Positions 4,924 to 42,648 of a stretch of 50,737 bases of DNA are shown here, piece by piece (the first letter of the stretch is position 1; each line of letters opens with the position of its first letter). The position numbers and the translations under genes are program-made. The notes below the pieces were generated by a model. That model did no database searches. It was not told the DNA's origin and saw nothing but the letters and a program-made list of their open reading frames with translations. The DNA lies in the NCBI GenBank assembly GCA_016196295.1, contig JACPYA010000041.1, forward strand, positions 1 to 50,737. The letters run 5' to 3'. Source of the stretch: Candidatus Peregrinibacteria bacterium (GTDB lineage: Bacteria; Patescibacteriota; Gracilibacteria; Peribacterales; Peribacteraceae).

Positions 4924-5194
4924 GACGGAATGTTACCAGACGTCCTATGATTTTTCATTCCTTTCTTTTTCGCGAGCTGCTCGCACTTCGAGCAAGATTT
5001 GATCGTATATTCAACTATGATATTCATAGACGGATCTGGTGATGGGACTACCTTCGCCTTTTTCATCATGGCCTGCGTGTGCGATGCGCGCCTCGCTAAG
5101 TTTCAACCAGGCGATTTGATCAAGCTCTTTCAGATCAATGGAATAAGCATATCCATCTACTCATTTGATTCGCAATCCTTCATACTATTTATAG

Positions 5195-5261
5195 GCCCCC
5201 GTAGCTTCCGCCTTCGTCCCGCTCTTGCGGGACTACGGACGGACAGGAGTGGCTATAATCC
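5195..5261 (+). repeat. R1 module upstream of tRNA-Arg, containing a TATAAT box
   Basis: GCCCCCGTAGCT (identical to tRNA-Arg positions 1-12) is followed by TCCGCCTTCGTCCCGCTCTTGCGGGACTACGGACGGACAGGAGTGGCTATAATCC. TATAAT lies about 30 nt upstream of the tRNA start. Confidence 0.7.
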
Positions 5262-5291
5262 TCTTCGATCGAACGATCTTTAGATTTCCGT

Positions 5292-5367
5292 GCCCCCGTA
5301 GCTCAGTGGATAGAGCAGTGGGTTTCTAACCCATTGGCCGTAGGTTCGATTCCTGCCGGGGGTACCA
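5292..5367 (+). tRNA. tRNA-Arg (anticodon TCT) with encoded CCA
   Basis: Hand-folded cloverleaf of 76 nt: acceptor GCCCCCG/CGGGGGT, D arm GCTC-AGTGGATA-GAGC, anticodon loop TTTCTAA, T arm GTAGG-TTCGATT-CCTGC, then A-CCA. Confidence 0.9.
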
Positions 5368-5374
5368 TTGTATT

Positions 5375-5605
5375 ATGCAGCGCATCGGAGTCTATATATT
5401 AGAAGGCAGAAGATTCTATGTTGGCAGCACGACAGATCTTGATCGCAGGCTTCTACAACACGAGAAAGGTCATACACATACTACAAAAAGAATCGGAAAA
5501 TGGGTTTTGAAGAAATTTTTCCCATGTGCTTCGGTCTCAGAAGCCAGAACTCTGGAGGCGCAGATCAAAAAATCAAAGAACATATCTAGATGGCTTACCG
5601 AATAG
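5375..5605 (+). CDS. Small GIY-YIG nuclease-family protein (UPF0213/YhbQ-like)
   Basis: 76 aa: GVYILEGRRFYVGSTTDLDRRLLQHEKG matches the GIY...YVG...R...H core. It begins 7 nt after the tRNA-Arg CCA, and its stop codon lies inside the downstream tRNA fragment. Confidence 0.8.
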   Translation: MQRIGVYILEGRRFYVGSTTDLDRRLLQHEKGHTHTTKRIGKWVLKKFFPCASVSEARTLEAQIKKSKNISRWLTE

Positions 5606-5662
5606 AGCAGCCCCGCATTTCTGCGGGGTTGGCCGTAGGTTCGATTCCTACCGGGGGTACCA
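5602..5662 (+). pseudogene. Duplicated 3' portion (D loop to CCA) of a tRNA-Arg(TCT)-like gene
   Basis: ATAGAGCA-GCCCCGCATTTCTGCGGGGT-TGGCC-GTAGGTTCGATTCCTAC-CGGGGGTACCA. The T arm and acceptor match tRNA-Arg at 5292-5367. The anticodon arm has diverged into a non-canonical 6- or 8-nt loop, and no 5' acceptor or D-arm partner lies directly upstream. Confidence 0.75.
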
Positions 5663-7103: not shown

Positions 7104-7560
7104 AGTGAGTAGTGAGTAGTGAGTAGTTTGTAGTGAGTAGGAAACTTCTATACAGTGAACCGCTATGCCCATTCAGAGCTATCGGGATCTTATTGTGTGG
7201 CAAAAGTCCATGGATCTTGTGACCCTCGTCTACAAACTGACCAAGGACTTTCCAAAAGATGAGTTGTACGGGCTAACGTCGCAAATGAGACGGAGTGCTG
7301 CATCCATTCCTTCCAATATTTCAGAAGGAAGCAGAAGATCTACACGCAAGGAGTTCAGAAGATTCCTCTGTATCGCTTATTCGTCAGGAGCTGAGCTGGA
7401 AACTCAATTAGAAATCGCTATTCGCCTCGAATATGGTAATCTGGTGTTCATTCAGGAAGCTCAAAATCTCCTTACAGAAATTATGAAGATGCTTAATAAA
7501 ATGACTTATTCACTCAAGCCAGCAGTCTCTGTTAACTACTCACTACCAACTACCCACTGA
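7103..7560 (+). mobile_element. IVS-like hairpin element carrying a four-helix-bundle gene, inserted between pyrH and frr
   Basis: The 5' arm at 7103-7141 is (GTGAGTA)n-like (AGTGAGTAGTGAGTAGTGAGTAGTTTGTAGTGAGTAGG). The 3' arm at 7536-7558 (CTACTCACTACCAACTACCCACT) is its imperfect complement. The ORF lies in the loop. Confidence 0.7.
7165..7560 (+). CDS. Four-helix-bundle protein (23S rRNA intervening-sequence protein family)
   Basis: 131 aa: YRDLIVWQKSMDLV...FPKDELYGLTSQMRRSAASIPSNISEGSRRST-KEF..FL.IAYSSGAELETQL is the family signature. Confidence 0.9.
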   Translation: MPIQSYRDLIVWQKSMDLVTLVYKLTKDFPKDELYGLTSQMRRSAASIPSNISEGSRRSTRKEFRRFLCIAYSSGAELETQLEIAIRLEYGNLVFIQEAQNLLTEIMKMLNKMTYSLKPAVSVNYSLPTTH

Positions 7561-12678: not shown

Positions 12679-12685
12679 TCCTATA

Positions 12686-12730
12686 CGGCTTCGTCCTCCC
12701 GCATGCGCGGGACGGGACTACGCCGATATT
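12686..12730 (+). repeat. 45-bp R1-type hairpin module, one half of a perfect inverted pair with 16425-16469
   Basis: CGGCTTCGTCCTCCCGCATGCGCGGGACGGGACTACGCCGATATT. Its reverse complement occurs identically at 16425-16469. Confidence 0.9.
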
Positions 12731-14076: not shown

Positions 14077-14209
14077 CCCTGCATTCTACGAATCGCTTTC
14101 CGCGGGGCAATGAATCGGTCTTGTCCCTCAAGGAATCCCCGTTTCTTGTATACAAAAGTTGATCGCATTACGCAGCCTCCCCACCCCGCTTCAGAGCCTC
14201 CCTGGAGCA

Positions 14210-14395
14210 ATCATTGGTATGAACCCCAGAGCAAGCTCTGGACTCCCTCTTCTGGAGCAAGCTCCGGGGAACCCGCCTGATCCGAACGATCAGATCGTTC
14301 GGGCGGGTCAAACCATCGACTTCGCTTGCAGTGCCACAACACAAAAAGCCCCTTGTCCGGCGTAGCCGAGCGGAGCGAGGCGAAGTCGGATTGAC
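14210..14395 (-). ncRNA. Candidate structured RNA, copy A (unclassified)
   Basis: The 186-nt core is homologous to 29004-29210. An AT-rich TATTAT box lies just upstream on the minus strand. Several hairpins are retained even where the sequence is replaced. Confidence 0.5.
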
Positions 14396-14426: not shown

Positions 14427-14972
14427 TTGGTGCTCTTCGCATCCACTGTTCTTGGCTTGCTGCTGGGATTTTCTTCCCCGATCTCGCTGCTGAATGCCGT
14501 GCCGGAAACGCGCTGGCAGCCGGAGGCGGGAGACGTCCTCCTGATCGATACGAAGGAGAACGTTGGGTACTTGGTGCACCGTGACGGGGTCTTCACGACC
14601 TTCCGTCTCGCCACGGGCCAACGCAGAGTCGTGAGCTACATCGGCCGCACGTACGACGCGACGACCCCGGAGAAATCGTGGGTAGCGCAGAGTCCGGTTG
14701 AGTTTAAAGGTGACCGCATTACCTTCGGAGCCGAGGGTCGTTTCCTGCGTCTCTGGGACGATGGGGAGCGCACGCCGTACGGCATTCATCCTCACCTCTA
14801 TAACGAGCGGATGCTCGCAAAGGATGATCGCTTCGAGAGCATGGGGTGCATCATCGTCAGCGACGCCATGATGCAGGTGATCGAAGACACATTCGCCCTC
14901 AACGGCAATCACCTCGAAGTCGTGACCTCCTTCGGTCTCGAGGGGCTTCGAAAGAGCTTGGCGCTCCAATAA
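14427..14972 (+). CDS. L,D-transpeptidase (YkuD) domain protein
   Basis: 181 aa with an N-terminal TM or signal sequence and GIHPH...SMGCIIVS, which resembles the YkuD catalytic His/Cys motif. Confidence 0.65.
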   Translation: MVLFASTVLGLLLGFSSPISLLNAVPETRWQPEAGDVLLIDTKENVGYLVHRDGVFTTFRLATGQRRVVSYIGRTYDATTPEKSWVAQSPVEFKGDRITFGAEGRFLRLWDDGERTPYGIHPHLYNERMLAKDDRFESMGCIIVSDAMMQVIEDTFALNGNHLEVVTSFGLEGLRKSLALQ

Positions 14973-15391: not shown

Positions 15392-15552
<161 letters not shown>

Positions 15553-16424: not shown

Positions 16425-16469
16425 AATATCGGCGTAGTCCCGTCCCGCGCATGCGGGAGGACGAAGCCG
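16425..16469 (-). repeat. Inverted partner of the 45-bp module at 12686-12730
   Basis: A perfect 45/45 reverse-complement match. Confidence 0.9.
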
Positions 16470-16588
16470 CATTACAAAGCGCGATGCCGTATCCGCCACA
16501 ACCATGTTGCGCAAAAGTACATTTCTTTGTGAAAAGACTAGTCGCTCTGATAGCATGATCGTTAATTTACCCCTCCCCCACTTCTCCT

Positions 16589-20498: not shown

Positions 20499-21944
20499 TC
20501 ATTGCCATTTTGTATGAAATGAACCCGGTTTGTCCAATCGTTCATACGTGTGTGCACCAAAGTAATCGCGCTGCGCCTGCGTGAGATTTTGCGGCAGCCA
20601 AGCGGTGCGGTAGGCATCGAAGTAGGTGAGGGATGCGGCCAGCGCCGGGAGCGGGATGGCATGGAGCGCGCCGAGTGCGACGACTCTGCGCCACTGTAAC
20701 TGCCGTTCATCACTGAATCGATCTCGAATCTCCTTCGAGGCCTTCTCATCTCCTTTGAAAGATTCCTGAAAGATGGACAGCACATCGCTCCGGATGATGC
20801 ATCCTCCACGCCAGATTCGTGCGACCTCACTCACGTTCAGACTCCATTTTTCTTCGGCGCTGGGAACGAACAGCAGTTGAAAGCCTTGCGCGTAGGTATT
20901 CAGGACGGAAAGTTCGAGCGCGGCGCGAACCATTTCGATGAGCACTTTTTTGTCGTAGGACACGGAGGTATCCTTCGTAAGATTGGCATGTTTGCTCATC
21001 TGCATGCGGAAATCTCGACCTCCGGAGACGATGCGCGCATCGACCGCCGCGGTGATCGTCGGCACCGCGACGCCGTAGTGCATCGCGGCATCCGTGGTCC
21101 ACTTTCCAGTCCCCTTCTGACCGGCGGCATCCTTGATAACATCGATGAGGTCCTTCTTCGTGTCGGGATCTTTCTCGCGCATCACCTTTGCGGCGATCTC
21201 GACGAGGAAGGAATGCAAGTATCCCCCATTCCATGTTTCAAATGCCTGCGCGATGTCAGCGTTCGTCATGTTTCCCTCCACTTTGAGGAGGTGATACGCC
21301 TCCGCAAGGAGCTGCATGATCCCATACTCGATCCCGTTATGGACCATCTTCACGAAATGCCCTACGCCTCCTTTGCCGAGATACGTGACACACTTTCCTT
21401 TCGCGCCGCCTGTGGTGCCCGTCTCGGCGCGGCCGAGCCGCGACGGAAGCAAAGTCGAACCATCGTCGGCAGCCATCTTTTTGAGGAGGGGTTCAAGCAC
21501 AGCGTACGCCTCCTTCGATCCGCCCGGCATCATGCTTGGACCCTTCAGCGCCCCCTCTTCTCCACCGCTCACGCCGAGCCCGATCAGGTGAATCCCCTTC
21601 TCCAAAAGCTGCGCCTCGCGTTTCTCCGTATCCCTATAATGGCTGTTGCCGGCGTCGATCACGATATCTCCCTTCTGAAGATGGGGAAGCAATTCCTTCA
21701 GCACCTGATCGACCGCTTCGCCCGCTTTGACCATCAAAAGAATCGGGCGAGGAGGTTTGAGCGCTTTCGCAAGCTCCGCGTAGGTTTTACAGGCGACGAA
21801 GACCCCTTCCTTTCCGTGCTCTTCGATAAATGCATCAAGTTTTTCTTTCGTGCGATTGTACACGGCAACCGTTGCTCCATTGCGGGCGGCATTGCGGGCA
21901 AGGTTTGCCCCCATTGTGCCGAGGCCGATCAATCCTAGTTGCAT
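20499..21944 (-). CDS. gnd: 6-phosphogluconate dehydrogenase (decarboxylating)
   Basis: 481 aa with GLIGLGTMGANLARN, GVSGGEEGA and a conserved C-terminal dimerisation domain. Confidence 0.95.
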   Translation of the reverse strand: MQLGLIGLGTMGANLARNAARNGATVAVYNRTKEKLDAFIEEHGKEGVFVACKTYAELAKALKPPRPILLMVKAGEAVDQVLKELLPHLQKGDIVIDAGNSHYRDTEKREAQLLEKGIHLIGLGVSGGEEGALKGPSMMPGGSKEAYAVLEPLLKKMAADDGSTLLPSRLGRAETGTTGGAKGKCVTYLGKGGVGHFVKMVHNGIEYGIMQLLAEAYHLLKVEGNMTNADIAQAFETWNGGYLHSFLVEIAAKVMREKDPDTKKDLIDVIKDAAGQKGTGKWTTDAAMHYGVAVPTITAAVDARIVSGGRDFRMQMSKHANLTKDTSVSYDKKVLIEMVRAALELSVLNTYAQGFQLLFVPSAEEKWSLNVSEVARIWRGGCIIRSDVLSIFQESFKGDEKASKEIRDRFSDERQLQWRRVVALGALHAIPLPALAASLTYFDAYRTAWLPQNLTQAQRDYFGAHTYERLDKPGSFHTKWQ

Positions 21945-22375
21945 GATATGTTGGTAGCTTGGTAGCTTGGTAGCGGGGTAGCTGGTTTGGAAGTTCCGAT
22001 GCGATTTGGTTTTGTATGTTCATGTAAATAACGCATTAATTTTGCTAGTTGTGCTCCGATTTTTTTGGTCATCGCTGAAGCCTCTTCAAATTCCTTTTCT
22101 AAGACATACCCATCGTCCAGACCGGGATACAGCAGAGATCGAACCTCTGCAGCTGAGCGCTTTGCATAACCGAGAAACATAATGAATTCTGGATTCGTGG
22201 TCGCATCGTTCCCCTCTGCAATATTCGCCATTATGGAAACCGTAGCTCTGCTAATTTGATCGGCCCAAGCCCAATCTTTTTTTGCAACCGCCCTTTTCGT
22301 AAATTTTCGAACCAGTCGCATTAAGCTGCGAGCTTCTTTCCACGCCTCTATGTCTTCAAAGGATGCGAATGCCAT
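21935..22375 (-). CDS. Four-helix-bundle protein (23S rRNA IVS protein family)
   Basis: 146 aa: SFEDIEAWKEARSL...ADQISRATVSIMANIAEGNDATTNPEFIMFLGYAKRSAAEVRSLL. Confidence 0.9.
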   Translation of the reverse strand: MAFASFEDIEAWKEARSLMRLVRKFTKRAVAKKDWAWADQISRATVSIMANIAEGNDATTNPEFIMFLGYAKRSAAEVRSLLYPGLDDGYVLEKEFEEASAMTKKIGAQLAKLMRYLHEHTKPNRIGTSKPATPLPSYQATNISCN

Positions 22376-24793: not shown

Positions 24794-27148
24794 ATGCAGC
24801 GAATCTTCCAGACACAGGAGCAGGTGGAAAGCATCTGGATTGGGCCAGAAGATGCCAAAAAGTTGAGCACAGATGACCTGAAAGCCTACGACCTCGCGAA
24901 GAAGATCATGGCGCACCTCTGCATCCAGGCGCCGACCAAACACAAGTCCGGGCACCCCGGCGGACCGCTTTCCTCTTTCACGTTCGCCTACTTCCTCTAT
25001 AAGCGCCGTGATCTGTCTACCGATGCGCCCTTTCGCATGAGCGCCGGGCATTTGAGCCTGCTTGCCTACGGGCTCCAATGGCTGTTCCATCGCGAGGGAT
25101 CCGACCCTCGACTCCAGAGTCCTCAGACGATCATCGATGCGTTCAGGGTTCCCGACGGGCTTCCCGGTCACGTGGAGGCGGGCATCGGCGACATCCCGTT
25201 CGGCGCGGGCCCGCTGGGGAAAGGCGTCAGCAATGCCCTCGGTGTCGCGTTTGGCATGCAGTACCTGAAGAAACAGGGTGCCGTCGATGTCCTGATGGCG
25301 GACGGCGACGCGCAAGAAGGACAGATCATGGAAGCCTTCCGTCTTGCATCGCACTTGGGACTCGGAAACCTTCTCGTTCACGGAGATTTCAACGACATTC
25401 AGTTGAGCGATATGCCGAGCCGCACGGTGGCTGCGGACTTCGCGCAGATCGCGAAGGCAGCAGGGTGGCAAGTGATCGAGGTGCAGAATGGGAATGACCC
25501 GGGACAAGCGGTCGCGGGGCTCGACCTCGCCGATACGCTCCGATCCAAAGGCAAACCCATCTTCCTCTGCTACTACACGACCATGGGCCACGGCGTGAAG
25601 GTGATGGAGGAAGGCTCGAACACCGGGAAGGCGAACTACCACGGCTCGCCGCTCAAAGATGACGTCGCGGCGCAGGCGCTGAAGGATCTGCCCCCACTCG
25701 AGGAGCTTGTCACGCAGTACCAGCCGTACCGACGACAGTGGAAAGTGGAAAGTGCAAAGTGGAAAGCCGGTCCATTGTCTCCCCCGCCGAAAATCGAGAG
25801 AACCATCACGGCGGAAAAAGGCGCGGCGCGGCAGGACTTCGGCGCGGTGCACCTGAAAAATCTCATGAACGCCGATGCGCGCATCGTCATCCTGCACGCG
25901 GACCTCGCGGCGTCCGGCGGCTTCGACCCTTCGGCGCGCTTCGCTTGCTCAGGGCAAGCACCTCGCGTCATAAACGTTGGCGTGGCGGAAGCGAACATGT
26001 ACATGATGGCGGCGGGGATGCGCCAAGCGGGACTGCTCCCGGTGACCTACACGTTCGCGGCTTTCGGCACGAATGAAGCGAGGGCGAACGCGCGCCTCAT
26101 TGACATCAATTGCGGCCACACGCGCTGCGCGGTGCTCCACGACTGCACGCACGCGGGGCTCTCCGTCGGCGAAGACGGCGAGACGCATCAAGAGCGAAAT
26201 TACCTGAATATCCCGCTGGACCGCACGCAGGTCTGGATGCCAGGCGACAGCAACCAAGCGGCGGCGATGGCGGAACGCGGGATGGAGCTGATCGCGGAAG
26301 GCACGACGAGCGTCTATGTCTTCTTCCCCCGGAGCGGCCACGAGCAGCTGAAAACTCCCACAGGCGAAGTGATCTACGGAAAAGAGTATCGCTTCGACGG
26401 CAAAATCGACCTCATCCGCGGCAAAAACGACGCAACCGACCAGGTGACGATCATCGCGACGGGCATCCCCGTCCATGATGCGGTGCTGGCCGCGGATGCC
26501 CTCGCAGCGAATGGACGAGTGGAAAGAGGAAAGAGGAAAGAGGAAAAAGAACGGACAAAACTTTCCACTTTCCACTCTCCACTTTCAACTTCTCCGCACT
26601 TTCCACTTTCCCTGCCCGTCCGGCAGGCGGGCACTTTCAATTTTCCACTTCGTGTAAGAGTGCTGAACGTCTCCTGCGTCCGCCCCATCGACGCCTCGGC
26701 GATCATCCAGGCGGCGCTCGAGACGTCGCATTTGATCGTCGTCGAAGATCACCACAGTGAAGGAGGACTCGCGACGCAGGTCGCAGACATCATCGCGGAC
26801 TTCCAGCTCCCCTGCTCGCTGCGCCGTCTCGGCGTGAACCACTATTTTCCCTCCGGCACGGACAAAGACCTCAAGTTCCTCGCCGGTCTCGACTGGGAGA
26901 GCATCGTGAACGCGGTGCTGGATGAATTACACTCGGAAGTGACGGGAGGCGAAGATGCTCTTGTAACAGCCATTTTTGCGATGTCGAAGAATGCGAAAGA
27001 GAGCCGGTTCCAGGATGCCGCGGCACCCTTCATCGATCGGCTCAAAAACGAGAAAGGCTATCTGGAATCCTTGCGAGCCGCGTGGGCGAAGCGCTCCTGT
27101 CCGCCGGAGAAGCTGCCGGACAATGCGCGGCTCAGAAGTCTGATCTGA
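24794..27148 (+). CDS. tkt: Transketolase (N- and C-terminal halves fused) with repeat-derived insertions
   Basis: It contains HPGGPLS, GDG..QEG (the ThDP site), a Pyr domain (GVAEANM) and a C-terminal domain. The ATG at 24794 is the likely start. See the findings for the insertions at 25737 and 26516. Confidence 0.9.
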   Translation: MQRIFQTQEQVESIWIGPEDAKKLSTDDLKAYDLAKKIMAHLCIQAPTKHKSGHPGGPLSSFTFAYFLYKRRDLSTDAPFRMSAGHLSLLAYGLQWLFHREGSDPRLQSPQTIIDAFRVPDGLPGHVEAGIGDIPFGAGPLGKGVSNALGVAFGMQYLKKQGAVDVLMADGDAQEGQIMEAFRLASHLGLGNLLVHGDFNDIQLSDMPSRTVAADFAQIAKAAGWQVIEVQNGNDPGQAVAGLDLADTLRSKGKPIFLCYYTTMGHGVKVMEEGSNTGKANYHGSPLKDDVAAQALKDLPPLEELVTQYQPYRRQWKVESAKWKAGPLSPPPKIERTITAEKGAARQDFGAVHLKNLMNADARIVILHADLAASGGFDPSARFACSGQAPRVINVGVAEANMYMMAAGMRQAGLLPVTYTFAAFGTNEARANARLIDINCGHTRCAVLHDCTHAGLSVGEDGETHQERNYLNIPLDRTQVWMPGDSNQAAAMAERGMELIAEGTTSVYVFFPRSGHEQLKTPTGEVIYGKEYRFDGKIDLIRGKNDATDQVTIIATGIPVHDAVLAADALAANGRVERGKRKEEKERTKLSTFHSPLSTSPHFPLSLPVRQAGTFNFPLRVRVLNVSCVRPIDASAIIQAALETSHLIVVEDHHSEGGLATQVADIIADFQLPCSLRRLGVNHYFPSGTDKDLKFLAGLDWESIVNAVLDELHSEVTGGEDALVTAIFAMSKNAKESRFQDAAAPFIDRLKNEKGYLESLRAAWAKRSCPPEKLPDNARLRSLI
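26516..26652 (+). mobile_element. ORF-less hairpin element of about 135 nt inserted in frame in tkt
   Basis: GTGGAAAGAGGAAAGAGGAAAGAGG ... CTTTCCACTTTCCACTCTCCAC form inverted arms. The CCCTGCCCGTCCGGCAGGCGGGCACTTTC hairpin is identical to the one at 42510-42540 and 42576-42606. Confidence 0.7.
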
Positions 27149-27175: not shown

Positions 27176-28255
27176 TCAGTACTTCCTCGTTCCATTGAGC
27201 ATGATGGTCAATCCCGATCCCGCGATGGTGGAGCCGACCTGGTCGATGGAGAACCGGATGACCGACCCCTCGGTGAGCGCCGTGGTGCTGAAGATGCCGG
27301 TCTTGGCGCTCGTCTTCGCGCTCACCGCGATTTGCGGCTTCGTCGAGTAGATGCTCGTTCCATCTTTGAAGACATCGACGATGATCGCGGCGCCGGTCGG
27401 CGCGACATTCACGCGGAGACTTCCCGTGCCGAGCGTGATGCCGTACGGCATCGTCACCACGGCGCCGCCCGTGGCCGTCACGAAGAGTCCCCCTTCGAAG
27501 AACCAGACCATGGAACTCGTCGGTGTCTTCCAAACGGGAGCGGACAAGCCCTGCGAGAGGATGATCTGCCCGGACGTTCCTTGCGCCGTGCGGCTGAGCG
27601 TCCCGCCGCTCGTGAAGGCGATCGCGCCCGAGCTCATAAAGTTGTTTGCCTTGATCAACGAACCGGAGATGTTTCCGGACACTCGCAGGTTGCTCTTGAA
27701 CCGTGACGCGTTGCTCACGACCAGCGATCCCGAAGCGTACAGGCCGCCGGTCACGTTCAGGTCGTCGCTGAATTCAAACCGGTCTTCGGCGTTCAGGAAC
27801 TTCAAGGTCTCGTTCGTCGAGTCGGAACCGAACGTGAGGACGGCGTCCGCTGCTCCACTATCCGAATTGATGGAGAGGTCCGCCTTCGTTTTGACCTCGC
27901 CGCTCACCGTGAGCGTTCCCGAACCCGTGATATTGCCCTGCACGTGGAGGTCGTCGGTGAATTCAAAGCGAGCCGGGGCGCGGTTCCAGTAGAGTTTCTC
28001 ATTGAGCGTGCCGCCGAAGCGGATCTCGACGTCCGTCAGCTGGTCGCCCTCGTCGATGACTTGGAAGGATTCGGTATTCACGAGCAGCGTCGGGCTCCAG
28101 CTGGAGGTCGCGGCAGAGACCCCCGTGCTCGCGAGCAGGACCATCGGAGCGAGGAGCCCCGCAAGGACGCGGGACAGGCTTCGCTTCGTGCAGTGCCGGC
28201 GATGGCGCAAGGCGCGGATCACGGCTGAGGAGGGCAAGAGGAAGATGCGGGACAC
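27176..28255 (-). CDS. Secreted repeat protein (tail-fibre or beta-helix-like repeats), paralogue of 36255-37808
   Basis: 359 aa with a signal peptide. The N-terminal roughly 170 aa are nearly colinear with those of the 517-aa protein (SWSPTLLVNTESFQ.IDEGD...TLKFLNAEDRFEFSDDLN.TG). Confidence 0.75.
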   Translation of the reverse strand: MSRIFLLPSSAVIRALRHRRHCTKRSLSRVLAGLLAPMVLLASTGVSAATSSWSPTLLVNTESFQVIDEGDQLTDVEIRFGGTLNEKLYWNRAPARFEFTDDLHVQGNITGSGTLTVSGEVKTKADLSINSDSGAADAVLTFGSDSTNETLKFLNAEDRFEFSDDLNVTGGLYASGSLVVSNASRFKSNLRVSGNISGSLIKANNFMSSGAIAFTSGGTLSRTAQGTSGQIILSQGLSAPVWKTPTSSMVWFFEGGLFVTATGGAVVTMPYGITLGTGSLRVNVAPTGAAIIVDVFKDGTSIYSTKPQIAVSAKTSAKTGIFSTTALTEGSVIRFSIDQVGSTIAGSGLTIMLNGTRKY

Positions 28256-29003: not shown

Positions 29004-29210
29004 GTCAATCCGCCTTCGTCCCGCAAGTGCGGGACTGCGCCGGACAAGGGGCTTTTGTGTTGTGGCATTGCAAGCGAAGCCGATGGTTTGACCCGCCCGA
29101 ACGATCTGATCGTTCGGATCGGGGCGGGTTCCCCGGAGCGTGCTCCGCAAGGGGGAGTCCAGAGCCCTGCCTGCCGGCAGGCAGGTTGCTCCGGGATTCA
29201 TACCAATGAT
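29004..29210 (+). ncRNA. Candidate structured RNA, copy B (unclassified)
   Basis: The 207-nt core is homologous to 14210-14395 in reverse orientation. It is preceded by the AT-rich TTATATTTACTATTCT. It carries an extra perfect hairpin (CCTGCCTGCCGGCAGGCAGG) at the tip of a conserved stem. Confidence 0.5.
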
Positions 29211-29244: not shown

Positions 29245-30045
29245 TTACCAGTCGAGAAACCAGAAGAAGTGCCTCCTTCTCTTGGCGGGCGTCCCCCCCA
29301 CGCTCGCGGCGGGCTTCACCTCCACGCCGACCCAGTTCCACTGAGCGGCACTTGTCCCGAACGCATCAAAATTCATGGTGACGGCTGTGCCAGACGGGGT
29401 TGTGTCGGAAGCCTTGTTCACCGCAAGCCCAGAGATTAACCCACTAAGATGGAAGGGATCTTCCGTGTCCGTTGAGGTAGGGGATCCCAAGGCGTTCCAG
29501 TCGTCCGCACAGCCAAATCCGCGCGAGTTATTCACGGTTGATGTGTAGATCGTGGGGGTGATGTTGTTGGTGTTGGAGTCCCCCTCGCCGCTCGCTCCGA
29601 TGGGGGAAGAGGTGTCGTGGCCCGTGATCACGTACACCTTGATCGCTTTGGCAAGCTTACTGGAGTTCGATGTCGCAGAGACGGTCATGCCCGTCCGTCC
29701 AGTCGTGAGCAGGGCGTACGCAGCAGCGGCGTTACCATCTGAGATGCTGCTCTCGAATCCGTCTCGCGAAACGATTTCCGTCCACGTCAGTGCAGCACCA
29801 TTGTTGGTTATCGTGATCGTCACGTCCTCGTCGTTCAAAGAGTCGCTAAGCACACAGACAAGGAGCAGCGAGGAATCCGGTGGGTTGAACGCTGCCGAGG
29901 TGACTGACGTAGAGTCTAGCGCTACGAGCGCAGGAGTTGAGGCATCGATCGCGATGGCTGCCTGCGCAATCGTTGGCAGCAACACACTGCAGATCGTCAG
30001 CAAAGAAACAAGGAAGCGCCGTACGTCTGTCCTCGTGATCATCAT
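29245..30045 (-). CDS. Secreted protein homologous to the C-terminal domain of the 1576-aa giant
   Basis: Starting at MM (30045) gives a signal peptide (FLVSLLTICSVLLPTIAQA). About 230 aa align with residues 1340-1576 of the neighbouring gene (..GRTGMTV.AT...K...KVYV..GH...SPIGASGEG...NNITP..YTSTV.NS.GFG..DW..). Confidence 0.75.
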   Translation of the reverse strand: MMITRTDVRRFLVSLLTICSVLLPTIAQAAIAIDASTPALVALDSTSVTSAAFNPPDSSLLLVCVLSDSLNDEDVTITITNNGAALTWTEIVSRDGFESSISDGNAAAAYALLTTGRTGMTVSATSNSSKLAKAIKVYVITGHDTSSPIGASGEGDSNTNNITPTIYTSTVNNSRGFGCADDWNALGSPTSTDTEDPFHLSGLISGLAVNKASDTTPSGTAVTMNFDAFGTSAAQWNWVGVEVKPAASVGGTPAKRRRHFFWFLDW

Positions 30046-30293
30046 GCCGATACGAAATGAACGCGCGGTCGTACGGATCATGCTGCTGGGAGAATTACCA
30101 TACACGATCAACTGTTCCGGCGGAAGCCGGAAGCAGTTGACAGGTCGCCATACGGCTTCGCGATATAAACGCAACGGATGTTTCATGCCGTGTTACAAAT
30201 AGCGGCGTAGCGATGTCGCTTCGCCGCTATTGATGATGTATTGCATGAGTCATTAATGATGTTTATATCGCAGAGCCGTATCAGATCTTGTCC

Positions 30294-35066: not shown

Positions 35067-35421
35067 TGGCGGAGAGGGAGGGTCTGCTTCGCGCTTTTGC
35101 TCTGCAAAGCTACGCAAGGCAGAGAGCTACGCAGACCAGAAATGTCGTTTTGCGAATGAATATCCAGAGCCTTGTTTTAGATAACGTTCAAATATCTCGG
35201 CTTTCTGTCGGTCTGAAAAAGTTACGACAACTTCGATTTTCCACGGAACATGCGGGCTTGTTGTTTTAGTCAGTGTGCGATTGTGCTCATCCATTCGCAC
35301 ACGAGGATCTTTGGTTGTGTATCCTACATATGTCATCCGGGGATTTTTGATGCTTCGCAGAAGATATACGTGATACATAGTTCCCTATCGTAGCCAATTC
35401 TGCAAAGCTTGCGAAGTAGGA
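35067..35421 (-). mobile_element. Putative autonomous GIY-YIG mini-element bounded by tRNA-Ser 3'-end copies
   Basis: The left boundary is TGGCGGAGAGGGAGGG (35067-82, the same 16-mer as the 3' end of tRNA-Ser(GCT)) followed by the hairpin GGTCTGC...GCAGACC. The right end is GCAAAGCTTGCGAAGTAGGA, followed by TGGCGG. The ends are homologous to the ends of the 67- and 75-nt ORF-less units. Confidence 0.6.
35127..35378 (-). CDS. Small GIY-YIG nuclease-family protein
   Basis: 83 aa: MYHVYLLRS...TYVGYTTKDPRVRMDEHN...AEIFERYLKQGSG. The stop codon TAG lies within the GCGTAGCT core of the terminal hairpin. Confidence 0.75.
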   Translation of the reverse strand: MYHVYLLRSIKNPRMTYVGYTTKDPRVRMDEHNRTLTKTTSPHVPWKIEVVVTFSDRQKAEIFERYLKQGSGYSFAKRHFWSA

Positions 35422-35583
35422 TGGCGGTTCTTCTCCGCAAGCTACGAAGAACATTCACTTGCATTGCTCTGCACGAGATCCTACGTAGCTTGCGAAGTAG
35501 GATGGCGGTTCTTCTCCGCAAGCTACGAAGAACATTCACTTGCATTGCTCTGCACGAGATCCTACGTAGCTTGCGAAGTAGGA
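35422..35583 (-). repeat. Two tandem 81-bp units (a 75-nt MITE-like element plus the TGGCGG duplication) abutting the 3' end of tRNA-Ser(TGA)
   Basis: The units start at 35422 and 35503, and the third TGGCGG (35584) is the tRNA 3' end itself. Each unit has two hairpins whose 12-nt loops (TTCGCAAGCTAC and GTAGCTTGCGGA) are mutually complementary. Confidence 0.85.
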
Positions 35584-35673
35584 TGGCGGAAGCGGGAGGA
35601 TTCGAACCTCCGATGCTCTTGCGAGCATACCTGTTTTCAAGACAGGCCCGATCAACCACTCCGGCACGCTTCC
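35584..35673 (-). tRNA. tRNA-Ser (anticodon TGA) with a long variable arm and encoded CCA
   Basis: The reverse complement reads GGAAGCGTGCCGGAGTGGTTGATCGGGCCTGTCTTGAAAACAGGTATGCTCGCAAGAGCATCGGAGGTTCGAATCCTCCCGCTTCCGCCA. Confidence 0.9.
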
Positions 35674-35760: not shown

Positions 35761-36262
35761 ATGGAGCGGAAAGCGTAAAGCAAAGAGCGTAAAGTGCGAA
35801 GGACAGAAAGAAACCGTAAAGCTGAACAGGAGATTTGCTACGATAGGATCATGCATCAAGATAGCCCTTTGAAGAGAAAAACGTACGCATTCGCGTTGCG
35901 CGTGACATTGCTCTGCAAAAAATTGATGGAAGAGAAGAAAGAATATGTTCTGAGTAAACAATTTTTGAAGAGCGCGACGAGTATTGGCGCAAATGTCGCA
36001 GAGGCCCAACATGCGCAAAGCCGAAATGATTTTGCAGCAAAGCTTTCCATTGCCTTGAAAGAAGCCTGGGAAAGCGATTTCTGGATTCATCTTCTCTGTG
36101 ATGCTTCGTATATCGGGCACAGCACAGGAGAGGAACTCTTGAGAGATCTTTCGGAAATCATCGCTCTCCTCACATCGAGCATCAAGACAGCAAGAAAAAA
36201 TTCCCTTTAAACTCGCCACTCTCTGCTCTTTGCTCTGCGTTCTACGCTCTCTGCTTACTTCT
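35761..36262 (+). mobile_element. IVS-like hairpin element carrying a four-helix-bundle gene
   Basis: The 5' arm is GGAGCGGAAAGCGTAAAGCAAAGAGCGTAAAGTGCGAAGG. The 3' arm is CTCTCTGCTCTTTGCTCTGCGTTCTACGCTCTCTGC (GCAAAGAGC/GCTCTTTGC and AGAGCGTA/TACGCTCT pair). Confidence 0.65.
35851..36210 (+). CDS. Four-helix-bundle protein (23S rRNA IVS protein family)
   Basis: 119 aa from the ATG at 35851: TYAFALRV..LCKKL...KEYVLSKQFLKSATSIGANVAEAQHAQSRNDFAAKLSIALKEAWES.FW..LL. Confidence 0.85.
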   Translation: MHQDSPLKRKTYAFALRVTLLCKKLMEEKKEYVLSKQFLKSATSIGANVAEAQHAQSRNDFAAKLSIALKEAWESDFWIHLLCDASYIGHSTGEELLRDLSEIIALLTSSIKTARKNSL

Positions 36263-37808
36263 TCGTCTCGATGTTGAAGTTGAACCAGCTGGCATCGGCG
36301 TACGCGCGGTCGGTGACGGCGGCGCCGGATGAGACCATCTTGATCATGAGCGTGATGTAGCTTCCTGACGCAAAGGCTCCCCCCGCTTCCGGTCCCGTGA
36401 TGGTGGCTGTCGTCCACGTCGTCGCCTTCAAGCTGGAGCCGCCCGTGAGAGGGATCGGCGTGTTGTTGGTGTCGAGCGCGCGGACTTCCAGCCAGCCTCC
36501 CGACGCGCGGTAGCGAAACTCCATCGGCTTCGTGCTCTCCCAGCCACTGAACTGGTCGGGGATGCGTACGCGCGAGATGATCCAGTAGTTCTGGTTGCTG
36601 GTCTTCGTCGATTGCCAGCGGTAGAAGTTCACGGTGCTGCCGGAGTCGTAGCGAAGGCCCAGCGAGCCGACGGCGGACGTGGCCGCGCCGCTCTGGAAGT
36701 AGATCGCGTGGGGATATTCCGGGTTCAAGAAGATCATCGATCCGCTGTTGCGGGTCACGGCGGCGGCCTGCGTATCGATGTCCGCGCTCCACGAGAGCTG
36801 TCCGGCGCCATCCGTTTTCAGAACCTTGCCCGATGCGGAACCGTCGAACGCCGGGAAGGTGTAGGTGACCCCGTTGAGACGGATCGTCGATTTGAAGACG
36901 GCCGCGCCGCCGAAGGTCACGGCGCCGGTGGCGCTGAGCGTGCCGGTCGTGTGGACGTCCTCCGAGAATTCAAAACGATCTTCGGCGTTCTTGAACGTCA
37001 CCGTTTCGTTCGTCGTATCGGAGCCGAAGGTCAAGACGGTGTCCGCCGCGGTCTGGTCCGCGTTGATGGTGAAATCTCCTTTCACGCTACCCGCGCCGCC
37101 GATGCTGAGCGCGCCGGATGCGGTGAGAACGCCGGTGGCATGCACATCATCGCTGAATTCGAAGCGGTCTTCCGCGTTCTTGAAGGTCACGGTTTCGTTC
37201 GTCGTATCGGAGCCGAAGGTCAAGACGGTGTCGGCAGCGGTCTGATCCGCGTTGATGGTGATGTCTCCTTTAATGGTGGCGGAACCGCCGATGACGAGTG
37301 CGCCGGACGCGGTGATGACGCCCGTCGCGTTGAGGTCGTCGCTGAACTCAAAGCGGTCTTCGGCGTTGAGGAACTTCAAGGTTTCATTGGTCGAATCGGA
37401 CCCGAAGGTGAGGACGGCATCCGCGGCTCCCGCATCGGCATTGATCGTGAGGTCTGCTTTCGTTTTCACGTTGCCGCTCACGGTGAGCGTTCCCGAACCG
37501 GTGATGTTCCCGTCCGCGCGAATGTCATCCGTGAATCTGAATTCGGCATTTGTCCGATCCCAGTAAATTTTCTCATTCAGCGTCCCGCCGAAGCGCAGTT
37601 CCACGTCCGTCGTCGAGTCACCCTCATCGATCGTCTGGAAGGATTCCGTGTTCACCAGCAGCGTCGGGCTCCACGCGGACGTGGCTGCGAGAGCTCGCGG
37701 GACACTTGCGAGAAGACCGCTCACGAAGAGAGCGAGAGCCGCGCTCGTCATGCGTTTCTTCAAGAGGAATGCCACGGTGCGTTTGGGTGTGTGCATGTGT
37801 GTGTGCAA
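36255..37808 (-). CDS. Secreted repeat protein (tail-fibre or beta-helix-like repeats)
   Basis: 517 aa with a signal peptide and three tandem units of about 65 aa (VLTFGSDTTNETVTFKNAEDRFEFSDDVHATGVLTASGAL.IGG). It is a paralogue of 27176-28255. Confidence 0.8.
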   Translation of the reverse strand: MHTHMHTPKRTVAFLLKKRMTSAALALFVSGLLASVPRALAATSAWSPTLLVNTESFQTIDEGDSTTDVELRFGGTLNEKIYWDRTNAEFRFTDDIRADGNITGSGTLTVSGNVKTKADLTINADAGAADAVLTFGSDSTNETLKFLNAEDRFEFSDDLNATGVITASGALVIGGSATIKGDITINADQTAADTVLTFGSDTTNETVTFKNAEDRFEFSDDVHATGVLTASGALSIGGAGSVKGDFTINADQTAADTVLTFGSDTTNETVTFKNAEDRFEFSEDVHTTGTLSATGAVTFGGAAVFKSTIRLNGVTYTFPAFDGSASGKVLKTDGAGQLSWSADIDTQAAAVTRNSGSMIFLNPEYPHAIYFQSGAATSAVGSLGLRYDSGSTVNFYRWQSTKTSNQNYWIISRVRIPDQFSGWESTKPMEFRYRASGGWLEVRALDTNNTPIPLTGGSSLKATTWTTATITGPEAGGAFASGSYITLMIKMVSSGAAVTDRAYADASWFNFNIETKK

Positions 37809-42240: not shown

Positions 42241-42314
42241 GGAGTGGAAAGTGAGACGGAGAGTGGAAAGTTGAAGGTGGAAAGTGGAAAGAGAAAAGGT
42301 TAAGATAGCAAACT

Positions 42315-42458
42315 ATGGTTCCTGAGCCCCTGCGATTTTGGCTGCGACTCATCACTGATGCAAGCTATGCTCCGGATACAAGAACAAAGCTACTGCAGGA
42401 AGAACTCACATCAATTATTTCCATGCTCGTTCAGAGCATTAAGACCGCCAAGATCGTC
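42315..42458 (+). pseudogene. Truncated four-helix-bundle gene (C-terminal helix region only)
   Basis: EPLRFWLRLITDASYAPDTRTKLLQEELTSIISMLVQSIKTAK aligns with the C-terminus of the 35851-36210 protein (ESDFWIHLLCDASYIGHSTGEELLRDLSEIIALLTSSIKTARK). The N-terminal two thirds are missing. It is flanked by GTGGAAAG / CTTTCCAC repeat arms. Confidence 0.7.
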
Positions 42459-42490
42459 CATAACTTTCCATTTACCACTTTACACTTTCC

Positions 42491-42622
42491 ACTCTTCACG
42501 GTCCGTAACTTTCCCTGCCCGTCCGGCAGGCGGGCACTTTCTACTTTGCACTTTTCACTCTTCACGGTCCGTAACTTTCCCTGCCCGTCCGGCAGGCGGG
42601 CACTTTCCACTTTCCATTTTGC
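42491..42622 (+). repeat. 66-bp tandem duplication (x2) containing the CCCTGCCCGTCCGGCAGGCGGGCA hairpin
   Basis: CTCTTCACGGTCCGTAACTTTCCCTGCCCGTCCGGCAGGCGGGCACTTTC occurs at 42491 and at 42557. Confidence 0.85.
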
Positions 42623-42648
42623 ATTTTCCACTTCCATTTAAGGCGCAT

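Follow-up and report, generated by a model that had tools for sequence, protein, structure and literature searches.

What is a conserved, non-coding block of about 200 nt, present twice in one bacterial contig: a gene for a structured RNA or a piece of mobile DNA? The question arises from a 50,737-nt stretch of Candidatus Peregrinibacteria bacterium (assembly GCA_016196295.1, contig JACPYA010000041.1; hereafter the window), in which a preliminary description had marked such a block and its relative on the other strand as a possible RNA. In this study, we compared both copies with each other and with the corresponding loci of related genomes. The block is, with high probability, a mobile non-coding insertion element. 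A lineage-specific, protein-less insertion family, similar to miniature inverted-repeat transposable elements (MITEs) in the broad sense and moved in trans, probably by a single-strand transposase of the HUH type, is the account that we favor as the likelier one. The HUH character of the mobilizing enzyme, taken by itself, is proposed more tentatively; both the enzyme and the single-strand route are things that we infer.

The two copies lie where they had been placed, B at 29004-29210 on the plus strand and A at 14395-14210 on the minus strand (GTCAA included in both), and they are non-coding and nearly identical. Their identity is about 90% (a mean column identity of 90% in the MAFFT alignment), and blastn recovers the pair as 86% identity over 177 nt plus 92% over 25 nt (E 3e-53). 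The three-part pattern TCAATCCG..GGTTTGACC..CCAATGAT finds copies A and B and nothing else in the window, and it matches in 0 of 100 shuffles. A block of 40 nt (CGATGGTTTGAC...GGATC) is without any difference between the copies; the differences reported for the remainder are all real, namely a 5' hairpin that is swapped, a loop in which CGTG and CTTG alternate between the copies, and the added 20-nt perfect palindrome (29166-29185) at a stem tip in B. A coding element was rejected, in accordance with the earlier statement that no open reading frame (ORF) explains the block: reading frames are not conserved between A and B, and no Pfam family is matched in any frame. As for the extent of the unit, the right end first proposed is correct and the start is not. 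The element begins at 29009 (TCCG...), and the preceding GTCAA is target DNA, because it is also found in relatives without the element. Thus delimited, the element opens with TCCGNCTTCG... and closes with ...CCAATGAT; the 5' flank GTCAA is common to both copies, and the right flanks are unlike, CAGTGT in B and TGCTCC in A. No terminal inverted repeats are present, the left TCCG(A/C)CTTCG and the right TTCATACCAATGAT being without complementarity, and no direct repeat or target-site duplication was found around the element.

A further comparison is with orthologous spacers. For copy A we used the rsmH loci of three related Peribacteraceae (L001, L004, and L005), with RsmH proteins 57-60% identical to that of the window. 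The gene order YkuD-rsmH-small ORF-pyruvate kinase is kept in all three, the spacer is recognizably orthologous, and between YkuD and rsmH it runs continuously as ...GTCAA|TG..., without the element. The window reads GTCAA[181 nt]TG at this place, an exact insertion with no target duplication; once copy A is removed in silico, the window aligns colinearly with the three relatives across the junction. For copy B the comparison was made through homologues of its helix-turn-helix (HTH) neighbor, at loci L056-L061 (Candidatus Peribacteria RIFCSPHIGHO2_02_FULL_52_16 and related assemblies). In relatives whose HTH gene is 62% identical, the same gene pair is separated by a 233-nt spacer that lacks the element, and removal of copy B in silico leaves a compared segment of 289 nt, against 291 nt in L056. 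In addition, a 99%-identical HTH protein occurs on two short Logan contigs of a 99%-identical strain (SRR12113416 and SRR12113417; L054 and L055), which end inside copy B's element, 35-40 and 59-64 nt in; this is the behavior of a repeat, since assemblies break in this way at repeats. Both copies sit in AT-rich, promoter-proximal intergenic DNA, directly 3' of TCAA (GTCAA in both window copies). At the level of sequence, these comparisons show A and B to be discrete, small, hairpin-rich, protein-less insertion elements of ~180-200 bp. The alternative of a MITE or transposon end, which the preliminary description had mentioned beside its RNA interpretation, is in this way supported by comparative evidence: empty sites, repeat behavior, and a third copy.

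This third copy, C, was the one extra copy recovered when the element was searched, in six-frame translation, against a protein database. It lies in NCBI MBI3331404.1 (annotated as "PrsW", Candidatus Peregrinibacteria bacterium), whose C-terminal 70 residues (SIRLRP...RRRWSDPPERSDRSDRAGSPELAPEKRVQSLLWGSYQ*) result from translation running on through the element. The right 105 nt of copy C show 4 visible codon changes in 35, and its 5' part has an extra 29 nt; where the element reads TGG TTT GAC, copy C has Trp-Ser-Asp. At the junction, Asp-Ser-Ile fits GAY TCA A|TC, so that TCAA is again possible, with the preceding G not kept. Elsewhere the searches were negative. A profile of A and B, run with nhmmer as the preliminary description had advised, had no match in ~100 kb of relatives' loci; a 16-mer and the three-motif pattern gave chance matches only in IMG/VR (checked with blastn); the 20-mer GGTTTGACCCGCCCGAACGA gave, among the matches listed for the GTDB genomes, one chance match of 21 nt (in a metagenome-assembled genome of Phycisphaeraceae); a 24-mer and a 21-mer had 0 matches each in the JGI metagenomes; and blastn against plasmids and phages had no match. 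The first two of the large pattern scans contained TGGTTTGAC, a motif that differs in copy C. Judged from these collections, the element family looks confined to the lineage of the window, a distribution more in keeping with a young repeat family than with a conserved functional RNA. The lineage itself is a poorly sampled one within the candidate phyla radiation (CPR), since the best RsmH homologues, from Candidatus Peribacteraceae and Peregrinibacteria, reach at most 60% identity.

Structurally, the element body is a mosaic of palindromes (table 1): a left module resembling repetitive extragenic palindromic (REP) sequences, a variable U/G-rich stretch, and, on the right, ~125 well-conserved nt that hold three hairpins (H2, H3, and H4). 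The left module, the first 44-48 nt, has the form TCCGCCTTCG-hairpin-CT(A/G)CGCCGGACAAGGGGCT and is a separate unit, which recurs at 5207-5254. On the bottom strand, GGCGTAG, a hairpin, and CGAAG follow one another in A, in the L054 version of B (with GTAG where the window's copy B has GCAG), at 5207-5254, at 12683-12730, and at 16425-16472; five REP-like modules are clear in the 50-kb window, and modules of the exact GGCGTAG-palindrome-CGAAG type are absent from the relatives' loci. The modules at 12683-12730 and 16425-16472 form an inverted 48-nt GTAG-hairpin-CGAAG pair, 98% identical, just outside the pyruvate kinase and PD-(D/E)XK genes. In the right part, H2 falls within the 40-nt block that A and B share without a difference, and copy C has no amino-acid change over H2. 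H3 and H4 have a common core, GAGC-TG-CTC (GAGC.TGCTC), and in the predicted folds their halves are able to cross-pair (CCCCGGAGC with GCTCYGGGG); within H4, one pair is A-U in copy A and mismatched (A.C) in copy B. The nested 20-nt palindrome of B resembles GC-rich palindromes at 26611-26631 and 42514-42600. Repeat arrays of the GGAAAGTGGAAAG type, with the palindrome CCCTGCCCGTCCGGCAGGCGGG, occupy 25716-25766, 26560-26635, and 42260-42634; two of these sites fall between the Pfam domains of a transketolase ORF that is, at 814 aa, unusually long, and the third is intergenic.

Table 1. Parts, copies, and target motifs of the insertion element (positions in the window)
Feature	Position	Strand	Remarks
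Copy B, insertion element	29009..29210	+	202 nt, TCCGCCTTCG to TTCATACCAATGAT; similarity to A starts and stops exactly here
Copy A, insertion element	14210..14390	-	181 nt; H2 14307-14272, H3 14265-14254, H4 14241-14226
GTCAA target motif, left flank of B	29004..29008	+	Same 5 nt flank A; uninterrupted in relatives' empty sites
GTCAA target motif, left flank of A	14391..14395	-	On the + strand, TTGAC -35 box of the YkuD promoter
Left-end REP-like module	29009..29052	+	Bottom strand GGCG(C/T)AG-hairpin-CGAAGGCGGA; hairpin 29018-29035, swapped in copy A
Solo left-end module	5207..5254	+	Upstream of tRNA-Arg; 87% identity; starts at the same TCCGCC
Hairpin H2	29092..29128	+	CCCGCC-CGAACGA-TCTGA-TCGTTCG-GATCGG-GGCGGG; three GATC sites; in all predicted folds
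Hairpin H3	29135..29146	+	GGAG-CGTG-CTCC; loop CGTG vs CTTG between copies
Hairpin H4	29159..29194	+	CCAGAG...CTCCGG; nested 20-nt perfect palindrome 29166-29185, not in A
Right terminus GATTCATACCAATGAT	29195..29210	+	A/B similarity stops after GAT

How would such an element move? Insertion 3' of a fixed tetranucleotide, ends that are not inverted, and no duplication of the target together form the signature of single-strand HUH transposition, as in IS200/IS605. We propose that a transposase encoded elsewhere in the genome mobilizes the element in trans, and that this enzyme would most probably be a single-strand HUH/Y1 transposase, either of the IS200/IS605-TnpA type or of the REP-associated (RAYT) type. 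The top strand would be excised and reinserted 3' of TCAA where the replication fork exposes single-stranded DNA, the hairpins would serve as recognition structures for the transposase, and any transcription of the element would be read-through or incidental. In IS608, cleavage occurs at TTAC in the left flank and at TCAA at the right end (PMC3201880), and these sites are read by the 4-nt guides AAAG and GAAT, just 5' of the hairpin feet (PMC3201880, PMC5934647). The flanking TCAA and the terminal TGAT of the present element are both of the form T-N-A-N, as are the two IS608 sites, and GAGT, the tetranucleotide that precedes the foot of H4, agrees at 3 of 4 positions with the guide that the IS608 rule predicts for TCAA (by eye). 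Hairpins H2-H4 are kept in both copies, and 16 nt separate H4 from the right end. Copies A (minus strand) and B (plus strand) are oppositely oriented on the two sides of a minimum in cumulative GC skew at ~25-27 kb; it is suggestive, with two copies and an origin that is itself inferred, that both top strands would be on the lagging-strand template, where the IS200/IS605 family leads one to expect them. The region ~25000-27000 is, from its skew minimum, a possible replication origin; genes on both sides are mostly on the minus strand, and there is no dnaA in the window.

Several observations weigh against a TCAA-targeting transposon of this kind. Pfam searches of all sizeable ORFs revealed no transposase in the 50.7-kb window, and no recombinase, reverse transcriptase, TnpB, IscB, or RAYT either. 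A and B differ in the hairpin closest to the left end, which is unexpected for a transposase binding site. Before no hairpin is there a CA.A-type guide for the right end TGAT, so that only half of the IS608 rule fits. The solo module at 5207-5254 has the 5' flank GTAGCT, not GTCAA or TCAA. Exact insertion without target duplication can be read base by base for copy A alone, the empty site of B being too diverged to place the junction to the base, with only its length fitting. Both the TCAA specificity and the orientation bias are drawn from two to three cases (two DNA copies and one inferred from protein). Finally, copy C may lie on another contig of the window's own assembly, in which case the known spread would be one lineage.

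The explanation originally preferred, that of a ~200-nt structured RNA transcribed from an AT-rich box, has to be weighed against this insertion family. It posits a family of free-standing structured small RNAs of ~190-210 nt, starting from the AT-rich box upstream of GTCAA, with the copies as paralogous genes. Such a family would account for the -10-like boxes 4-8 nt upstream of both copies, for the good conservation of the right 105 nt in copy C, and for the concentration of A/B variation in loops and helix tips. The pairings named in the preliminary description do exist in the predicted folds of both copies, and both copies fold well below shuffled sequences (z -3.2 and -3.7 forward); yet the reverse strand folds as well or better (z -4.2 and -4.9), and with DNA parameters both copies likewise fold better than shuffles. 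Equal folding of the two strands shows no strand preference and offers no argument for RNA over DNA hairpins. Nor is there covariation: RNAalifold finds 0 of 60 pairs compensatory, in line with the earlier remark that clean compensatory substitutions are lacking, and in a hand-drawn structure with the helices proposed by eye 0 of 43 pairs covary and 41 of 43 are invariant, both counts coming from two sequences and thus having very low power. The two variable pairs of the hand-drawn structure are A-U in A and mismatched in B. The first helix (GTCAATCC/GGTTTGAC) draws 5 nt (GTCAA) from the flanking DNA and is weakened in copy C. The presumed promoter fares no better, as the similarity begins past it: the box at A belongs to the conserved promoter region of YkuD (TTGACG-16-TAAAGT), which lies outside the repeated unit and is kept in relatives without the element. 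No terminator-like site follows A or B. Known RNA classes are unmatched, as had been stated, with nothing at gathering score in a cmscan-type search of Rfam 15; even at E<=10 there is only miRNA, snoRNA, and lncRNA noise, leaving 6S, SRP, RNase P, tmRNA, HEARO, ribozymes, and riboswitches without a match, and ARAGORN finds three tRNAs in the window and nothing else. The element is also absent from orthologous spacers and from the ~100 kb of relatives' DNA. Overall, there is no evidence for a functional RNA, the structured-RNA interpretation is not supported, and we regard a small RNA family as improbable.

Two further explanations keep the element mobile and change what moves it or what it carries. 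The element could be a protein-less derivative of an IS200/IS605 element (palindrome-associated transposable element, PATE) that carries a guide-RNA scaffold: the right ~125 nt would be similar to an omega RNA, transcribed across the right boundary, and the adjacent flank would be the guide of a TnpB-type nuclease, encoded elsewhere, that cuts TCAA-flanked empty sites. The architecture fits: PATEs, according to PMC10055086, "often encode omega RNAs" that are used in trans. The structured part, the best conserved of the element, reaches up to the right boundary, where similarity ends exactly, and a fixed motif stands 5' of the left end, at the position of a target-adjacent motif (TAM). Against these stand the lack of tnpB, iscB, or tnpA in the window and of any Rfam match, HEARO included; moreover, no internal promoter was detected, no frame holds a remnant of a tnpB 3' end, and transcription of the element is not evidenced. 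We therefore consider such a PATE unlikely, and also unlikely is the more general version, in which the ~125-nt right part would be the RNA scaffold of a protein-less, TCAA-targeting single-strand transposon, with a flank-derived guide for a TnpB/IscB-like or novel effector. A mobilizing system outside the HUH class would be an IS110/IS1111-type or other site-specific recombinase, acting at an AT-rich target ending in TTGAC, or RNA-mediated (retro) copying. The IS110 family, too, typically inserts site-specifically and lacks inverted repeats, both window insertions adjoin TTGAC in AT-rich, promoter-like DNA, and the left junction has a complement in the internal GGTTTGAC. However, this complementarity is lost in copy C, and the two junctions share no core dinucleotide of the IS110 kind (left AA|TC; right AT|TG in A or AT|CA in B). 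Beyond GTCAA the left flanks have only AT-richness in common (in an ungapped reading), the poly-A or target duplication expected of a retro-copy is absent, and the window holds neither recombinase nor reverse transcriptase; a non-HUH system thus has little probability in our judgment. Some narrower ideas were tried and rejected. A flank-matched "guide" within the element was attributed to chance, as the right flank of A equals an internal site over 8 nt (TGCTCCAG) and that of B has no match of at least 6 nt. The template and variable repeat of a diversity-generating retroelement do not apply, the differences not being adenine-specific, the copies lying outside genes, and a reverse transcriptase being absent. 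A group I or II intron would have other terminal nucleotides and would interrupt a gene or RNA, which the element does not do, and the core sites do not suit an integron attC. The HTH neighbor was dismissed as the transposase: its 207-aa product combines the HTH with a membrane segment at the C-terminus, and the gene is kept together with its downstream gene in element-free relatives.

With regard to the genomic setting, copy A lies between a divergent YkuD-like gene (14427-14972, plus strand) and rsmH/mraW (14076-13159, minus strand), and copy B between the gene of the small protein with HTH and membrane segment (28842-28219, minus strand, divergent) and the 3' end of the gene of a 313-aa secreted protein (29245-30186, minus strand). 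The YkuD-rsmH spacer (14077-14209; 631-807 in L001 and 6366-6594 in L004) is strikingly conserved, for instance in GATCAACTTTTGTATACAA and GGGACAAGACCGATTCATTGCC, with RsmH only 57-60% identical; it could be a regulatory region or an unrecognized small feature. YkuD and rsmH seem to start ~10 nt or less from their -10 boxes. Around the solo module, the tRNA-Arg(tct) gene shows traces of other events. The last 34 nt of this tRNA (5334-5367) are repeated at 5629-5662, and between the two lies a 76-aa GIY-YIG ORF (5375-5605; PF01541, E 3.8e-11), so that 5292-5662 looks like a mini-element integrated in the tRNA 3' end, restoring the gene. The first 12 nt (GCCCCCGTAGCT) are in turn repeated upstream at 5194-5205, with the solo REP-like module and a promoter-like box (TGGCTATAAT) between the 5' repeats (5194-5303), a segment that may be a second small insertion, which rebuilt the tRNA 5' end with a promoter of its own. 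Three genes of the 23S_rRNA_IVP/four-helix-bundle (bAvd-like) type are found in the 50 kb, at 7165-7560 (plus strand), 21935-22375 (minus strand), and 35794-36210 (plus strand); at the site of the one at 7165-7560, relative L005 has AA_kinase followed directly by RRF, and this gene may itself be an insertion. Tandem repeats of 81 nt (35397-35589) abut tRNA-Ser(tga), and a related 31-mer (15434-15464) abuts tRNA-Ser(gct). Repeat units of 189 nt (27719-28114 and 36915-37688) are common to a 359-aa ORF downstream of the HTH gene and to a 517-aa ORF (36255-37808) with a weak bactofilin match; the two look like paralogous repeat proteins.

Annotations should mask the block as a repeat or mobile element and not list it as a candidate novel RNA, and its presence explains why assemblies break at this place in the lineage. 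It also records recent mobile-DNA activity in a small CPR genome, in a window that has REP-like palindromes, a GIY-YIG mini-element, and four-helix-bundle genes as well. Both insertions lie against promoter elements of neighboring genes and might affect their expression. Should the enzyme be found, the element would provide a compact, TCAA-specific system of single-strand transposition from an unstudied phylum; if, instead, the right part proved to be a guide-RNA scaffold, the element would be a mobile guide-RNA cassette with a scaffold type outside any curated family.

The place of the element among known systems can be outlined from these features. Classical bacterial MITEs such as Correia, ERIC, RUP, and BOX are small, non-coding, intergenic, strongly folding, and multi-copy, and they are built of modules, with variable inner parts. 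The present element shares all these traits; it differs from MITEs derived from DDE transposons in having neither terminal inverted repeats nor a target-site duplication. In this it resembles IS608 and the protein-less derivatives known for IS200/IS605 elements, the PATEs (PMC10055086), as it does in its insertion 3' of a fixed tetranucleotide (two copies and one inferred), in the T-N-A-N form of its TCAA flank and TGAT end, in its wealth of hairpins, in the GA.T tetranucleotide before one hairpin foot, and in an orientation of both copies compatible with the lagging-strand template. Unlike IS608, it has a variable left-end hairpin, no guide for TGAT, and no cognate TnpA/TnpB seen in the window, and ~150 nt separate its matching guide from the left cleavage site, where IS608 has 19 nt. 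With the omega RNAs of TnpB/IscB systems it has in common a conserved, structured ~125 nt whose end coincides with the right boundary of a TAM-flanked element; with no effector gene in the window and no match to a curated family, this is a resemblance of position only. A GTAG-tagged palindrome is described as characteristic of the REP superfamily, for which mobilization by RAYT transposases is assumed, and tagged REPs are reported from 8 phyla, the CPR not being named among them in the abstract (PMC3733652). The left module corresponds to the REP format given there, a palindrome of 20-40 bp, one end of which carries GTAG unpaired (GCAG in the window's copy B). As in REPs and bacterial interspersed mosaic elements (BIMEs), GTAG and palindrome adjoin on the bottom strand, solo modules are intergenic in the window, and palindromes nest in a mosaic. 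The element departs from REPs, which are 20-40 bp and usually very abundant, in that one module is joined to a unique conserved body of ~140 nt, and from GTAG REPs in the GCAG of copy B and in the lack of a RAYT gene in the window. Overall, we suggest that its closest kin are the IS200/IS605-derived PATEs and the REP/BIME mosaics, with PATE membership as a working hypothesis, and that it represents a fairly ordinary kind of repeat, though one undescribed for this group.

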